Position numbers and translations under genes: made by a program. Source: Escherichia phage phT4A. From it: DNA of 64,000 nucleotides. The DNA is taken from the sequence record NC_055712.1, one strand, 5' to 3'. How positions within the stretch are numbered: position 1 is the stretch's first letter; every line of letters starts with the position of its first letter. The notes under the pieces were generated by a model that did no database searches, had not been told where the DNA came from, and saw only the letters and a program-made list of their open reading frames with translations. Of the stretch, positions 16,688-47,965 are shown piece after piece.

Positions 16688-17845
16688 TTATAAAATTTCG
16701 TCGTTTTCTTCGATATCATCAAATGATTCTGGGATATCGTCATCATCCAGATCAGGATCTGGGATGCTATCAGTGCTGTATAAATCTTCCAGCGCGGAAC
16801 CATCACTGATTTCACGATCTGGGATCTTATACTTTTCTTCGATAGCTTTCAAGAATGGTTGATGAGTAAACAGAGGACGCCAGAATTCAACGCTATTTGT
16901 TTCTGACTCACGCCATTTCTTTTCTTCAACTTCGAGTTCGCCAGTCTCGGTATTCAGGAAAGCGCGGTTGCGCCAGCCTTTGGTTACGGTCTGTACAAAG
17001 TTCATTTCCATTGCCAGATCCAAAAGGCCAGAATACATACTAATACCGCCTTCATAGGTAACATGCAGCGGGAATTTTGATTTCTCTTTCACGAATCGAG
17101 ATTTTTCGATATTCATGATGAAATCATAACCTACCACCTCAGTACCTTCTTTCACCTGTTGTTTACCCAGGATGATCGCAGTATCAGCGGAATACATTAA
17201 ACCAGTACCACCAGAAATAACTTTCTTGCTGTACATTTCTTGTGTGTCATAGGTATGACAGATACAAACCATCGGGATATCCAGGTCAGCCAGATAAGGC
17301 GTAACCATACGGAACATACCTTTTAATGCTTTTGCTCGCGTCATATCCTGTTTATCGTTATCAGAAAGCGCGTCAGCAAGTTCTTTTTTACTTGCCGTGT
17401 TGCCTACTGAGTCAACGAATACAATCACCTTATCACCGCGTTCAAGCGCGTTAAGCTGGCTTACAACGTCATTACGCAACTGCTCGACCGTCGTGATACG
17501 AGTATACACAACACGATCCGGATCAACACCCATTGATTTCAGATAGGATTTAGTAACACCTTTTTCTGAATCGTAGAACAGGCACACAGCATCTTCATAC
17601 GTTTTGAGATACGCCGCTACAGTAAGCAAACCTAAGTTGGATTTGAAGTGTTTGGACGGGCCAGCGAAAAGGGTAAGACCAGAAGTTAGGCCACCGTTAA
17701 ACGCACCGGACAACGCCAGATTCAGAATCGGCACACGGGTTCGCGTGATGGTAATATTGTTGAATACGTCGCTTTCAGAAAGTACAGATGCAGTTTGGCT
17801 ATTCGAGTTTTTGATCAGTTTTTTTAGTAGTGCTTTGTTTGACAT
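16688..17845 (-). CDS. uvsX: UvsX recombinase (RecA-like)
   Basis: 385 aa; GPSKHFKS Walker A; collinear with recalled T4 UvsX; acidic C-tail. Confidence 0.9.
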   Translation of the reverse strand: MSNKALLKKLIKNSNSQTASVLSESDVFNNITITRTRVPILNLALSGAFNGGLTSGLTLFAGPSKHFKSNLGLLTVAAYLKTYEDAVCLFYDSEKGVTKSYLKSMGVDPDRVVYTRITTVEQLRNDVVSQLNALERGDKVIVFVDSVGNTASKKELADALSDNDKQDMTRAKALKGMFRMVTPYLADLDIPMVCICHTYDTQEMYSKKVISGGTGLMYSADTAIILGKQQVKEGTEVVGYDFIMNIEKSRFVKEKSKFPLHVTYEGGISMYSGLLDLAMEMNFVQTVTKGWRNRAFLNTETGELEVEEKKWRESETNSVEFWRPLFTHQPFLKAIEEKYKIPDREISDGSALEDLYSTDSIPDPDLDDDDIPESFDDIEENDEIL

Positions 17846-17868
17846 TTAATTTTTCCGATTTATTCATT

Positions 17869-17968
17869 NNNNNNNNNNNNNNNNNNNNNNNNNNNNNNNN
17901 NNNNNNNNNNNNNNNNNNNNNNNNNNNNNNNNNNNNNNNNNNNNNNNNNNNNNNNNNNNNNNNNNNNN
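17869..17968. other. assembly gap (100 N), true length unknown
   Basis: Run of N; polymerase C-terminus (roughly 110 aa by comparison with T4 gp43) is missing. Confidence 0.9.
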
Positions 17969-38054: not shown

Positions 38055-38154
38055 NNNNNNNNNNNNNNNNNNNNNNNNNNNNNNNNNNNNNNNNNNNNNN
38101 NNNNNNNNNNNNNNNNNNNNNNNNNNNNNNNNNNNNNNNNNNNNNNNNNNNNNN
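38055..38154. other. assembly gap (100 N), true length unknown
   Basis: Run of N; roughly the C-terminal third of NrdA (and possibly further genes such as nrdB) is missing. Confidence 0.9.
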
Positions 38155-38591: not shown

Positions 38592-39729
38592 AATTATCAA
38601 TACCCTTTACAAACAACTCATGCAGTTGTGTGGTGAATCCGAAACATTTTTCTTCGTTGATCAAGTAACCGTGATGGGTACACCTGTTCGAATCTTTAAC
38701 TATCGCATGGCCTCATATACAGACTGGCTAAAGCCTGGTGCTCTGGAATGTCGCGGTATCATGTTTGAAATGGATGGAGATACCCCCGTATCAATCATCA
38801 GCCGCCCTATGGAGAAGTTTTTTAACTATGCCGAGGTAAAGGCATGGGAAGCGCTTAACGAGTCTCCTATTGAATTAGGCGAAGTTTTAGACGTGATGAT
38901 TAAAGAAGATGGTTCCTTGATCTCAACTTTCCTTGACGGTGGATTTCTGGCGGTCAAGTCTAAAGGTTCGGTTAAATCAGAACAAGCTATGGATGCGCAC
39001 AGCGTGTTAATGGCAAATCGTGAATTGCTGACCCGCTTAACTGAGATCGCTAAAGAAAACTATACGGTGAACATGGAATACGTTTCCCCGAAAAACCGTA
39101 TTGTCGTTGGTTATGATTCTCCTGATCTGCGTATCCTGAACGTTCGTCACAACATCACGGGTGAATACATCCCTTATGATGAACTCTTTGCTGACGCGCT
39201 GTTACGTGCGTATCTGGTTAAGCGTGAGAATATCGAAGTACTGGATCTGGATGCATTCGCAAAAGAAGCATATCAGAATGAAGGATTCGAAGGCTATGTT
39301 GTTCTGACAACGAAAGGGTTTGTAAAAATCAAAACAAACTGGTATGTCAATCTGCATCGCACAAAAGATAGCATCACCAACAATAAGGATCTTTTCCTAA
39401 ATATTGTTGAGAATACGGTCGATGACCTGAAACAGCTATTCAGTTCGGATCTGGTCTCTCTGAAAAAGATTGACGATTTCGAAAAACTTTTCCTTGATAG
39501 TCTCAATCGTTTGAGTGCAAAAGCGTTCAAAGCTATTGAAGATAATAAAGGGAAATCGCGTAAAGATTTTGCTATCAGTCTAAGCGCGGATTTGTCAAAC
39601 GACGGTCGGATCATCTTCGGGCCTCTTATGAAGTACTTCGAAGAAACCGATCCACAAAAACTGGTCGATCGCATCATTGAAATGATGGTTAAAAATTACG
39701 ATCAGTTCATTCCTGGAGAGTACAAGTGA
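38572..39729 (+). CDS. rnlA: RNA ligase 1 (RnlA, gene 63 equivalent)
   Basis: 385 aa; collinear with recalled T4 Rnl1 (ALECRGIMFEMDG, IKEDGSL, FKSKGS). Confidence 0.85.
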   Translation: MTKAQTKIINTLYKQLMQLCGESETFFFVDQVTVMGTPVRIFNYRMASYTDWLKPGALECRGIMFEMDGDTPVSIISRPMEKFFNYAEVKAWEALNESPIELGEVLDVMIKEDGSLISTFLDGGFLAVKSKGSVKSEQAMDAHSVLMANRELLTRLTEIAKENYTVNMEYVSPKNRIVVGYDSPDLRILNVRHNITGEYIPYDELFADALLRAYLVKRENIEVLDLDAFAKEAYQNEGFEGYVVLTTKGFVKIKTNWYVNLHRTKDSITNNKDLFLNIVENTVDDLKQLFSSDLVSLKKIDDFEKLFLDSLNRLSAKAFKAIEDNKGKSRKDFAISLSADLSNDGRIIFGPLMKYFEETDPQKLVDRIIEMMVKNYDQFIPGEYK

Positions 39730-40262
39730 AATCATTTGGCGCATATAGCCGAACGATAGAACAAGAAAAAGCAGGGATTGATTCCCTGCTTTCTTTCGTT
39801 GATGTTTTCCCCGAAACTGGAAAAATTTACTGGAATGATAAAGCATATCATAAAAGTAAGAGAGGAAAAGAAGCGGGTTCTATTGTTTGTGAAGAATACC
39901 CTTATACGAAAATAAAGTATGCTGGGAAAAATTACATGAGGCATAGAATAATATTTTACTATGTTCATGGTTACTTACCAATCATAGTTGATCATAAAAA
40001 TGGTCTTGATTTTGGTGATTGTATTGATAATCTTCAAGAATCCGATCCCGTTCATAATATATTGAAGAAAAACAAAACCAGAAAATCTAAAACTACCACA
40101 TCAAAAGGGGTTGACTATCGTTCTTCTCGTGGAAAATATAGAGCACAAATACGGATTAATGGTAAAACGAAACATATAGGATATTATGATACAGAAGAAC
40201 AGGCGTCTATCGCATATGAGGAAACTTTGAATGAATATCAAAAGCATCTTGGGTATGATTAA
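39726..40262 (+). CDS. HNH endonuclease with AP2 DNA-binding domain (freestanding homing endonuclease)
   Basis: IVDHKNGLDFGDCIDNLQ HNH core; C-terminal YRSSRGKYRAQIRINGKTKHIGYYDTEEQASIAYEE AP2-like; paralog of 47175-47693. Confidence 0.8.
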   Translation: MKSFGAYSRTIEQEKAGIDSLLSFVDVFPETGKIYWNDKAYHKSKRGKEAGSIVCEEYPYTKIKYAGKNYMRHRIIFYYVHGYLPIIVDHKNGLDFGDCIDNLQESDPVHNILKKNKTRKSKTTTSKGVDYRSSRGKYRAQIRINGKTKHIGYYDTEEQASIAYEETLNEYQKHLGYD

Positions 40263-40566
40263 TATAAAATCGTGGATATGGCCTATTATTGTTGCTTGCT
40301 CCCTAATAGCCCTTTTTTACATTGCAGTCGATACCAAAATTGAAAATGCATCATTACGCAAGGATATAAAATCTTTGCAAGACGATGTGAAGAAAGTAAA
40401 AGAGACAAATACAAGCAATACTGTGATCTATGTCGAACAAAAAGGTAAGGATCAGCAGTTGGTCAAGGATGCCGGACGTAAAGATCTGCTGTTTAAAAAA
40501 CCAGGACTGATCGAAATCAAGATCAACAAATCCTTCGAAGAGTATATGGCGGAATACGACAAATGA
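40255..40566 (+). CDS. putative i-spanin (inner-membrane anchored, coiled-coil)
   Basis: N-terminal TM (WIWPIIVACSLIALFYIAV) then charged coiled-coil; followed by lipoprotein gene; upstream of pnk as T4 pseT.3/pseT.2. Confidence 0.55.
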   Translation: MINIKSWIWPIIVACSLIALFYIAVDTKIENASLRKDIKSLQDDVKKVKETNTSNTVIYVEQKGKDQQLVKDAGRKDLLFKKPGLIEIKINKSFEEYMAEYDK

Positions 40567-41037: not shown

Positions 41038-41421
41038 AATCTGTTTATGACTATTGGCGTTCCGGGTAGTGGAAAAACTACCTGGGCGCATGAGAAAGCC
41101 CGTGAATTGGGTAATACTGTTACGATCTCTCGCGATGATCTGCGTAGCTCTTTGTATAATGCNNNNNNNNNNNNNNNNNNNNNNNNNNNNNNNNNNNNNN
41201 NNNNNNNNNNNNNNNNNNNNNNNNNNNNNNNNNNNNNNNNNNNNNNNNNNNNNNNNNNNNNNGATACCAGGACAGATTTTGAAGTAAAAGAAGAAATTTT
41301 GTTTGACAAGATTTTAGATAAGTATTATCCTGTTATTGCAGTGGACGATAGAGACACTCCGGTCGGGATGTGGCGAGCAAACGGGATTCCGTGCTTACAA
41401 GTCGATTATGGTGATTTCTGA
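41035..41421 (+). CDS. pseT: polynucleotide kinase/3'-phosphatase (Pnk), middle part lost in gap
   Basis: N-terminal kinase P-loop GVPGSGKTTWA; C-terminal DTRTDFEVKEEILF...AVDDRDTPVGMWRANGIPCLQVDYGDF matches T4 Pnk C-terminus. Confidence 0.8.
   Translation: MNLFMTIGVPGSGKTTWAHEKARELGNTVTISRDDLRSSLYNXXXXXXXXXXXXXXXXXXXXXXXXXXXXXXXXXXDTRTDFEVKEEILFDKILDKYYPVIAVDDRDTPVGMWRANGIPCLQVDYGDF
41163..41262. other. assembly gap (100 N), true length unknown
   Basis: Run of N; about 200 aa of Pnk missing by comparison with T4. Confidence 0.9.
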
Positions 41422-43408: not shown

Positions 43409-43485
43409 GGCCCCTTAGCTCAATAGGTAGAGCTAATCACTCATAATGGTTAGGTTCCCGGTTCAAGTCACGGGAGGGGCCACCA
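43409..43485 (+). tRNA. tRNA with CAU anticodon (Met, or Ile if lysidine-modified); T-stem imperfect
   Basis: Hand fold: 7-bp acceptor GGCCCCU/AGGGGCC, canonical D and anticodon arms, loop CUCAUAA, encoded CCA; T-stem has a mismatch. Confidence 0.6.
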
Positions 43486-46495: not shown

Positions 46496-46640
46496 TACTA
46501 CGGATTCAAAACGAGTCATTTTGGTAAAGCGTATCGTACAGAAAACATCGATCGCAAACGTCCGTACTATGATTCTTTAGTACGCGCGGGACGCAAACGC
46601 GCTCGCCAGGAAGGGAAGAAGGAAGCAGAAAATGAACTTT
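46490..46640 (+). CDS. small basic hypothetical ORF (GTG start)
   Basis: Hand-translated; SD GAGG upstream. Confidence 0.25.
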
Positions 46641-46734
46641 GATCAACCCATTGCAATGATAATCGGTGCTGTCCTGGGAATGCTTCTTTTGTTTGGCGGA
46701 ATCCCATTAACTGCATATATCATGAGGTTATTCT
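46630..46734 (+). CDS. small membrane peptide (34 aa)
   Basis: MNFDQPIAMIIGAVLGMLLLFGGIPL... Confidence 0.25.
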
Positions 46735-46737
46735 AAA

Positions 46738-47178
46738 ATGGACATCGGATCAGGTAGTCAGTATCCCTCATGCGCTTTAAGCAACTTTGCCCCGCATCCG
46801 TTTACGTTCGACGGGGTAGAATGCGCATCGATGGAGGGGCTTTTACAAAGCCTGAAATTCAGCAATCCAGACATGCAAGCGCATGTATGTACGCTGGTTG
46901 GTAAAGCCGCCAAGTTCAAAGGCAAGAAAAAGAAATGGTATCGCGATCAGACCTTGTACTGGAAAGGTACACCGATCCATCGCGAATCCGAAGCGTACCA
47001 GATTCTTATTGAAAATGCGTACAATGCTCTTTTCCTGAATGACGGGTTCCGCCGTGCGCTGGCAGCAACCGGAAAAAGTACCTTGACACATTCAATGGGG
47101 AAATCTCGTATGAACGAAACTATTCTGACAGAACGAGAATTTATTAGAAATTTGAACAGGTTGAGAAATTTGTTATGA
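46738..47178 (+). CDS. NADAR / YbiA-like (DUF1768) domain protein
   Basis: ALSNFAPHPFTFDGVECASMEGLLQSLKF matches the YbiA/NADAR signature. Confidence 0.7.
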   Translation: MDIGSGSQYPSCALSNFAPHPFTFDGVECASMEGLLQSLKFSNPDMQAHVCTLVGKAAKFKGKKKKWYRDQTLYWKGTPIHRESEAYQILIENAYNALFLNDGFRRALAATGKSTLTHSMGKSRMNETILTEREFIRNLNRLRNLL

Positions 47179-47693
47179 AAAGCGCTGATAACCTAAAAAA
47201 AGAAATTGAAGGAATCAAGAAATTATTGCATTATATCGATGTTGATATAGAGACTGGAATATGTACTTGGAAAAGACCCAGAAAATCTATAAATGTTGGT
47301 GATGTTGCTGGATGTAAGAAAGAAAAATATCATGTTATTTGTTTCGATTATAGGTTGTATAGACGACACAGGATTGTGTTCTATTTTGCTAAAGGTTACT
47401 TACCTCAAGTAGTAGACCACATTCATGGTGTTGAACATGGCGACGGTATTGATAATTTACAAGAGGCATCGCAAAGACAAAACGTTATTAAAAAGAAAGG
47501 ACAGAAAAACAACAAAAGTGGTTATCGAGGGGTGTGTTGGTCGTCTCGTGCTGAAAAGTATCGAGCAACTATAGGTATTGATGGAAAACAAATACATTTA
47601 GGATATTTCGATACTCCAGAAGAAGCAAGTAAAGCATATCATCAAAAAGCGAAAGAAACTTTTGGTGATTTTTATAATCCATTGGTTAAATGA
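47175..47693 (+). CDS. HNH endonuclease with AP2 domain (freestanding homing endonuclease)
   Basis: VVDHIHGVEHGDGIDNLQ HNH core; YRGVCWSSRAEKYRATIGIDGKQIHLGYFDTPEEASKAY AP2-like. Confidence 0.8.
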   Translation: MKSADNLKKEIEGIKKLLHYIDVDIETGICTWKRPRKSINVGDVAGCKKEKYHVICFDYRLYRRHRIVFYFAKGYLPQVVDHIHGVEHGDGIDNLQEASQRQNVIKKKGQKNNKSGYRGVCWSSRAEKYRATIGIDGKQIHLGYFDTPEEASKAYHQKAKETFGDFYNPLVK

Positions 47694-47701
47694 GATCTGT
47701 T

Positions 47702-47965
47702 ATGAGTGAAAAAGAAAGAGTAGAATGCGTGTTCCTGTTCAAAGGCGCGATTAATCCATTAGCGTTACTGTATGCGCAACATGCATTACGTTCAACGTTG
47801 ATTCAGAGTGTTATCTATAAAGCAGGTGTGTATTATGTTACCATCGGCGCAAATAACATGGTTGTTATTGAATCCTATGTTAAGGAATGTGCATCAAACG
47901 GCGTTGTCTTTGATAAAGTCGATTTTGATGCAGGGGTAGATGCTGTTTATATGTATAAGGGTTGA
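47702..47965 (+). CDS. hypothetical protein
   Basis: ORF. Confidence 0.4.
   Translation: MSEKERVECVFLFKGAINPLALLYAQHALRSTLIQSVIYKAGVYYVTIGANNMVVIESYVKECASNGVVFDKVDFDAGVDAVYMYKG

Follow-up and report, generated by a model that had tools for sequence, protein, structure and literature searches.

The window analysed here, 64,000 nucleotides of sequence record NC_055712.1 (Escherichia phage phT4A), carries two related genes on its plus strand, HNH1 (39726..40262, 178 amino acids) and HNH2 (47175..47693, 172 amino acids), which lie 7.5 kb apart. It is close to certain that both are HNH-AP2 endonuclease genes, and we annotate them as homing endonuclease genes of the free-standing kind. HNH1 starts with a GTG that overlaps the stop codon of the upstream gene rnlA (GTGA), and HNH2 with an ATG that overlaps the stop codon of the upstream gene adfN (ATGA). 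An initial annotation, made from the letters of the sequence and a list of its open reading frames (ORFs), had given the two ORFs the same coordinates and strand.

Domains and conservation of HNH1 and HNH2

Direct reading of the translations gives the motifs IIVDHKNGLDFGDCIDNLQE and YRSSRGKYRAQIRINGKTKHIGYYDTEEQASIAY in HNH1, and QVVDHIHGVEHGDGIDNLQE and WSSRAEKYRATIGIDGKQIHLGYFDTPEEASKAY in HNH2. The consensus strings in the initial annotation were essentially right, except that HNH1 reads DTEEQAS and not DT.EEAS. The profile search for AP2 and HNH_3 that it had proposed matched both domains in both proteins. Pfam gathering thresholds are 33.3 bits for AP2 (PF00847) and 24.8 bits for HNH_3 (PF13392); above them are AP2 in HNH1 (3.1e-8, 34.2 bits) and HNH_3 in HNH2 (6.6e-6, 26.1 bits). 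Both proteins also match PHROG 99, 'HNH endonuclease' (HNH1, 1.2e-44; HNH2, 1.6e-57), and their alignment with one another covers both proteins in full (40% identity, E = 2e-37). In HNH1 the nuclease core comprises approximately residues 60-118 (39903..40079), as defined by the family alignment, a structure model and a match to I-HmuI, and the AP2 DNA-binding domain comprises residues 126-172 (40101..40241). The corresponding domains of HNH2 are HNH_3 at 47358-47486 and AP2 at 47517-47654; all four lie on the plus strand.

The family alignment has 50 members, taken from 92 homologues of HNH2 and four of HNH1; the latter were all that a word-indexed search with HNH1 as the query returned, so the HNH2 query supplied the larger set. 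At least 90% conserved or invariant in this alignment are H73, R74, D89, H90, N102, L103 and N111 (HNH1 numbering). The catalytic set consists of H90 (codon 39993-39995), N102 (40029-40031) and N111 (40056-40058) in HNH1, and of the equivalent H82 (codon at 47418), N94 (47454) and N103 (47481) in HNH2, all on the plus strand; this is the His-Asn-Asn set of the 'HNN' type of HNH nucleases. An AlphaFold2 model of HNH1 built on the family alignment has a mean predicted local distance difference test score of 90.6, and its nuclease core folds as strand-strand-helix (E87-90, E103-106, H108-118). The architecture is thus a small N-terminal beta region and an H-N-N beta-beta-alpha-metal nuclease, both I-HmuI-like, followed by an AP2 domain where I-HmuI has its C-terminal module; the initial annotation had proposed the HNH and AP2 parts, and profiles, alignment and model agree with it. 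For the AP2 half, searches of PDB by sequence matched WRI1 and ERF096, with HNH2 matching the WRI1 AP2 domain at 3e-4, and the structural matches were TEM1 and AtERF1.

Some results weigh against the assignment. One domain score in each protein falls slightly below its threshold: AP2 in HNH2 (5.4e-7, 30.3 bits) and HNH_3 in HNH1 (4.2e-5, 23.5 bits), the latter match covering only profile positions 1-26 of 46. Moreover, Foldseek against PDB and the PDB sequence search found matches to the AP2 half only. Since HNH1 and HNH2 are homologous over their full lengths, however, the borderline domain call in each protein is backed by the other protein, and the gap left by the partial HNH_3 match in HNH1 is covered by its homology to HNH2 and by the structure model.

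Both ORFs are intact in the window and retain all of the catalytic residues. HNH1 and the orthologue carried by Enterobacter phage EC-W2 have 66% amino-acid identity; between them, the ratio of nonsynonymous to synonymous substitution rates (dN/dS) is 0.11, an approximate value because synonymous sites are near saturation, and indicates long-term purifying selection on the HNH1 protein. A tblastn search of the 64 kb window found no further copy, and a third paralogue within it was rejected for lack of a match. We also considered and rejected a terminase-linked HNH role of the HK97 gp74 type, as HNH1 and HNH2 lie next to rnlA, the spanin genes, adfN and small early genes, and each gene is missing from ~80% of related records.

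Occupancy, insertion sites and flanking tracts

The window region is 95-99.6% identical to Klebsiella T4-like phages of the genus Slopekvirus (Straboviridae), among them phi1_146054, R6_1, Prick1_ER44, VAC66, Miro and Matisse. The comparison set was made up of ~111 phage records with the flanks at ≥90% identity. The flanks are common to these records; HNH1 is found in 22 of them (21 phages, as Miro was deposited twice) and HNH2 in 19, and wherever the two genes are found their copies are 99.2-100% identical. All combinations occur: both genes in the window, VAC66 and Prick1, HNH1 alone in Miro and phi1_146054, HNH2 alone in KLB3, and neither in BL02. The flanking genes are intact in occupied and unoccupied genomes alike and both insertions are at gene junctions, outside any intron or intein, so the genes are free-standing. 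Of the features of free-standing HNH-AP2 homing endonuclease genes, those found here comprise an H-N-N nuclease, a C-terminal AP2 domain, a free-standing ORF, sporadic presence and, on comparative evidence, co-conversion of flanks. As to the term paralogs in the initial annotation, the two proteins do belong to one family, but duplication within this genome does not hold: at 40% identity to one another, and each with 99-100% identical copies elsewhere, they were separately acquired.

At the first site, genomes lacking HNH1 read ...CCTGAACAATATAAATGA-GGTTCATA-ATGCCTAAG..., in which the rnlA stop codon (TGA) is followed by the 8-nucleotide spacer GGTTCATA and the i-spanin start codon (ATG). HNH1 carriers have instead a single common block, ~39715-40306, consisting of a recoded rnlA end, HNH1 and a diverged set of the first 16 i-spanin codons. 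The left edge is formed by the last rnlA codons (39715..39728, plus strand), whose recoded form is found in HNH1 carriers only, as aligned with BL02 and KLB3, both without HNH1. Here GGA GAG replaces GAA CAA, which creates a GGAG Shine-Dalgarno sequence (39715-18) 7 nucleotides before the GTG start; it is missing from genomes without HNH1. At the right edge, the HNH1-linked variant of the first ~16 i-spanin codons (40255..40306, plus strand, by alignment) occurs in exactly the 22 HNH1-carrying records and in no others, and past 40306 the window is identical to the HNH1-lacking BL02. The i-spanin ATG at 40255 overlaps the HNH1 stop codon (ATGATTAA at 40255-40262), so that the endonuclease cassette now supplies the i-spanin start region. 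The 3′ part of the i-spanin gene in Miro and VAC66 is of another haplotype, 85-88% identical to the window, yet their HNH1 is 100% identical to that of the window; an identical block thus sits on different backgrounds. The mechanically called i-spanin ORF start at 40231 is probably wrong, the start homologous to that of HNH1-lacking genomes being the ATG at 40255.

The upstream neighbour at the second site (46738..47178, plus strand) has Phage_30_3 (6e-55) as the only Pfam family reported for it, and comparison of alleles shows it to be a diverged, HNH2-linked allele. The gene product, gp30.3, is now called AdfN and belongs to the NADAR family; it is an ADP-ribosylglycohydrolase by which the DarTG1 defence is neutralised (bioRxiv 10.1101/2024.07.11.602962), and on that authority the label 'NADAR gene' in the initial annotation stands. 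The HNH2-linked and HNH2-lacking adfN alleles share 81% nucleotide and 91% amino-acid identity. On the right, the match to HNH2-lacking genomes returns directly after the HNH2 stop codon; on the left, the upstream sequence is of the diverged haplotype.

We mapped this haplotype with 153 diagnostic sites in the window and 10 other genomes (seven HNH2 sequences including that of the window, and four genomes without HNH2 at this site). The carrier haplotype always starts at HNH2, and its length varies between genomes. In the window, the full upstream tract travelling with HNH2 spans 46620..47174 (plus strand), from the site map and an identity table that includes phage CPRSB. The tract is ~560 bp long, reaching back to 46620, in the window, Prick1, VAC66 and KLB3; almost full length with patches of the resident haplotype in RCIP0008; interrupted, as a mosaic, in KMI9; and only ~85 bp long in KP13MC5-1. 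The minimal tract common to all HNH2 carriers examined is ~47090-47174. Among carriers the adfN allele is 87-100% identical, while HNH2 is 99.2-100% identical. Carrier and non-carrier adfN differ at 28% of positions in the 85 bp adjoining HNH2 versus 17% elsewhere (p = 0.03), and none of the four examined HNH2-lacking genomes has a carrier-type adfN 3′ end.

Downstream of HNH2, alignment with Miro, BL02 and phi1_146054 locates GAGATCTGTTATGA at 47692..47705 (plus strand), which repeats the translation-initiation sequence found at the end of adfN (47163-47178). With this duplicate, the displaced downstream gene regains its start region; according to the alignment and the annotation of relatives, the true ATG of that gene is at 47702 and not at 47690. 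The HNH2-linked adfN allele (46640-47174) is 86-89% identical to the alleles of Cronobacter, Enterobacter and Citrobacter phages of other genera; being nearer to these than to the HNH2-lacking slopekvirus allele (81%), it suggests that the block came from outside the genus.

Two HNH2 copies look damaged. That of VAC66 (record L006, ~17450-17963) has an extra A in a 5′ run of A residues, equivalent to window positions 47219-47226, and is annotated 51 nucleotides shorter; that of CPRSB (record L013, 2081-2512) is annotated shorter, as truncated. Each could be a case of early decay or of sequencing error.

Probable homing and alternative explanations

We consider it highly probable that HNH1 and HNH2 are HNH-AP2 homing endonuclease genes which are now, or were very recently, mobile by intronless homing; that they still home today is, on sequence evidence, less certain than their identification as HNH-AP2 genes. 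The endonuclease genes are uniform, the empty sites are clean and the tracts are variable in length and anchored at the gene, a combination that is the comparative signature of homing with co-conversion. DNA neighbouring the near-identical HNH1 and HNH2 genes differs by up to 15-20%. The suggestion of active or recent mobility in the initial annotation gains support from the precise presence or absence of the genes among near-identical genomes, their uniformity and the variable tracts, and activity is to be understood as a probable reading of that pattern.

On the model of the T4 seg and mob genes, homing of HNH1 and HNH2 may proceed as follows. A carrier phage and a related non-carrier phage would infect one cell, and the enzyme would recognise the unoccupied allele through its AP2 domain and N-terminal contacts. 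It would then nick or cut near the insertion point, the likely targets being, for HNH1, the junction of rnlA and the i-spanin gene and, for HNH2, the last ~85 bp of adfN at its 3′ end. A strand-specific nick is likelier than a direct double-strand break, since each monomer has a single HNH site and the characterised enzymes nearest to HNH1 and HNH2 are I-HmuI and MobE. Recombinational repair would copy the endonuclease gene together with a flanking stretch of variable length from the carrier genome, which would itself be immune because its own flanking sequence differs. Both genes are fitted into translationally coupled gene junctions: HNH1 brings its own Shine-Dalgarno sequence in the recoded rnlA end and supplies the i-spanin start, and HNH2 takes over the ATGA junction of adfN and carries the duplicate.

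Expression appears to depend on neighbouring genes. A consensus scan for sigma-70 promoters gave no more sites than it did in shuffled sequence and found none directly upstream of HNH1 or HNH2, T4-type middle and late promoters being outside its scope; judged from the sequence, both genes are translationally coupled to their neighbours and have no convincing promoter of the sigma-70 type. A terminator-like hairpin, AAAGCAGGGATTGATTCCCTGCTTT, with a 10-12 bp stem and a T-rich tail, was found by scanning at 39768..39792 (plus strand), 43-67 nucleotides inside the HNH1 ORF. It has a folding z-score of -2.7; for HNH2 the value is 0.14, and no regulatory hairpin was found there. The stem is unchanged in the EC-W2 and metagenomic orthologues, whose ORFs are otherwise 71% and 78% identical; in the metagenomic orthologue, the first 110 nucleotides of the ORF are 94.5% identical versus 78% for the remainder. 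The annotation of phage Miro likewise marks the hairpin as a terminator. Probably it is a candidate attenuator that limits expression of the endonuclease, as in T4 mobE.

Several points count against homing as set out here. Cleavage, nicking and biased inheritance by HNH1 and HNH2 are inferred, and the literature searched contained no experimental work on T4-type HNH-AP2 endonucleases. The hairpin stem overlaps the conserved peptide EKAGIDSLL, so that its conservation is partly at the protein level. The targets named above were deduced from the clustering of polymorphisms, and the true cut site could be further away, as with several T4 seg enzymes (PMC2988022); T4 free-standing endonucleases often cut hundreds of base pairs from their own gene. 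Finally, part of the pattern could be due to mosaic phages recombining in the ordinary way, the endonuclease gene being carried along as a passenger.

Taken further, this last point becomes the explanation that the genes are homing endonucleases by descent which no longer home, their patchiness reflecting ordinary recombination and occasional deletion, and the genes themselves being passengers or decaying remnants. We think this unlikely. It has in its favour the strong co-occurrence of the two genes (among ~110 phages, 16 with both, five with HNH1 only and three with HNH2 only; Fisher p = 2e-12), explicable by the shared ancestry of one lineage, and we note that the co-occurrence may come either from shared lineage or from hitch-hiking over the intervening 7.5 kb. 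The damaged-looking HNH2 copies of VAC66 and CPRSB would also fit, as would the linear gain-then-decay model proposed for HNH-AP2 genes of Xanthomonas phages (PMC2248197). Yet both ORFs of the window are intact with their catalytic residues kept, and the dN/dS of 0.11 extends over a long divergence. Genes that are 99-100% identical beside backbones differing by 5-20% are unexpected for old passengers, whereas HNH2-anchored tracts of unequal length fit repeated repair events that start near the gene. Simple deletion, moreover, would leave genomes with carrier-type flanks and no endonuclease gene, and such flanks are absent from the HNH1-lacking records and from the four examined HNH2-lacking genomes.

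Alternatively, HNH1 and HNH2 might mainly serve the phage, either as AP2-type regulators or as nucleases acting against co-infecting relatives or the DNA of the host, by exclusion or degradation. Three points would agree with such a service: in plants and apicomplexans the AP2 fold is that of transcription factors, purifying selection acts on the protein, and T4 seg and mob activity is known to exclude markers of a competing phage as a by-product (PMC2988022). We nevertheless hold it to be very improbable: ~80% of close slopekvirus records lack each gene and come from viable isolates, so neither is needed for growth; the retained nuclease residues argue against a pure regulator; and exclusion of competitors belongs to the homing mechanism and does not compete with it as an explanation.

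If HNH1 and HNH2 are indeed mobile by homing, the tracts at the second site raise a more speculative matter. The carrier adfN allele has 6-7 residue changes in its C-terminal 25 codons. AdfN reverses the ADP-ribosylation of DNA by DarT1, and C-terminal truncation inactivates it in RB69 (bioRxiv 10.1101/2024.07.11.602962). HNH2 homing might repeatedly overwrite part or all of adfN and so move functionally different anti-defence alleles between phages, a doubtful proposal to which we give little credence at present. Were it true, with the changes altering the specificity or activity of the counter-defence, HNH2 would be a vehicle spreading anti-defence alleles between phages.

Surrounding genes and known systems

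Gene order around the two sites is as in the Slopekvirus relatives: nrdA, nrdB, denA, rnlA, (HNH1), i-spanin, o-spanin and pseT, and further on gp30.3, (HNH2), two small genes, a HAD-like gene and DNA ligase. The gene upstream of HNH1 is T4 RNA ligase 1 (Pfam RNA_lig_T4_1 and T4_Rnl1_C), and the i-spanin and o-spanin genes downstream are named from the annotation of relatives. Pfam and these annotations agree with the insertion places given initially, between rnlA and the spanins for HNH1 and after the NADAR gene for HNH2.

The window contains three runs of exactly 100 N (17869-17968, 38055-38154 and 41163-41262). The run at 38055-38154 replaces ~2.1 kb of the relatives, comprising the 3′ third of nrdA, all of nrdB and a small ORF, and may clip the 5′ end of denA; that at 41163-41262 falls inside pseT. 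The runs act like scaffold gaps and not like masks of equal length, so ORFs that enter them are artefacts. What remains of denA (endonuclease II) after truncation by the N gap lies between 38285 and 38591. Labels for this gene differ, a GIY-YIG 'homing endonuclease' in Miro and EC-W2 and endonuclease II in others; it is found in all relatives examined and thus does not behave as a mobile gene. At 43409-43485, ARAGORN finds one tRNA-Met (CAT), where the KLB3 annotation has two tRNAs (Ile, Gln) and that of Miro a single tRNA-Met on the other strand; relatives are thus annotated inconsistently here.

Further HNH endonuclease genes occur in relatives: between the i-spanin and o-spanin genes of phi1_146054 (record L009, 10333-10836); between a small ORF and the HAD-like gene of KLB3 (record L007, 10507-11019), also present in the phi1_146054 sequence; and on the upstream side of adfN in Earwig_ER32 (record L015, 2096-2524), the last being 69-71% identical to HNH2. 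The early-gene block, within the same 10 kb, is a hot spot for insertions of HNH endonuclease genes.

HNH1 and HNH2 are already known both in kind and in instance, as they are annotated in close relatives. Miro gp70, 100% identical to HNH1, is annotated 'homing endonuclease; contains AP2/ERF domain', and other relatives have 'HNH endonuclease' or 'homing endonuclease'. Homing endonuclease genes have been listed among the variable genes of slopekviruses (bioRxiv 10.1101/2022.04.06.486684; PMC9960720). The HNH2 family is widespread, with matches in 1564 of 50,697 phage records (tblastn, E <= 1e-10). In the literature searched, we did not find site-by-site boundaries, occupancy and co-conversion tracts for the two loci, or HNH2 tracts overwriting adfN. 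Confirming a routine annotation is of little weight on its own. The two sites nevertheless offer a clean natural case of intronless homing, with two related genes, each at ~15-20% occupancy, in all four states and with graded tracts. Slopekvirus is a well-sampled genus used for phage therapy, and isolates with and without the genes exist (Miro, VAC66, KLB3, Matisse, BL02), which makes it suited to a first test of a T4-type HNH-AP2 endonuclease. Homing tracts that reach adfN, an anti-defence gene, would also bear on how counter-defence alleles move between phages.

Later papers credit the definition of HNH-AP2 endonucleases to Magnani et al. 2004 and to Wuitschick et al. 2004. Their genes were noted in RB49 and RB43 (Nolan 2006, PMC1524935) and are tabulated as one class of homing endonuclease in T4-related phages, where RB16 has six, RB43 three and the slopekvirus KP15 one (Petrov 2010, PMC2993671). 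The genes of RB16, RB43, RB49, JSE and KP15 have the same two domains and are likewise free-standing and sporadic, and HNH1 and HNH2 show no essential difference from them. In lytic Vibrio phage ICP1, the IPA-HNH genes also combine an N-terminal HNH with a C-terminal AP2 domain and lie where recombination tracts between related phages end, but their HNH domains have diverged beyond the reach of the Pfam HNH_3 profile (PMC10448857), which matches HNH1 and HNH2 directly. I-HmuI of Bacillus phage SPO1 (PDB 1u3e), a nicking HNH enzyme, differs in being encoded by a group I intron, whereas HNH1 and HNH2 are free-standing, and in a helical C-terminal DNA-binding part of the helix-turn-helix type where HNH1 and HNH2 have AP2.

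Intronless homing has been reviewed and is experimentally established for the T4 seg and mob genes (PMC2988022; PMC2790892). Among these, the mobE gene lacks a promoter and contains an internal terminator; its product nicks nrdB of phage T2, and the gene spreads with co-conversion (Wilson & Edgell 2009, PMC2790892). Like mobE, which lies between nrdA and nrdB, the genes described here are promoterless HNH genes amid phage metabolic genes that would rely on upstream transcription. They share with it co-conversion of neighbours and a single HNH site, from which a strand-specific nick is expected, and HNH1 in addition has a hairpin or terminator inside its ORF. The C-terminal DNA-binding region of MobE is not AP2, however, and its nick site and biased inheritance are experimental where ours are deduced; the likeness drawn here is one of genetic organisation only.

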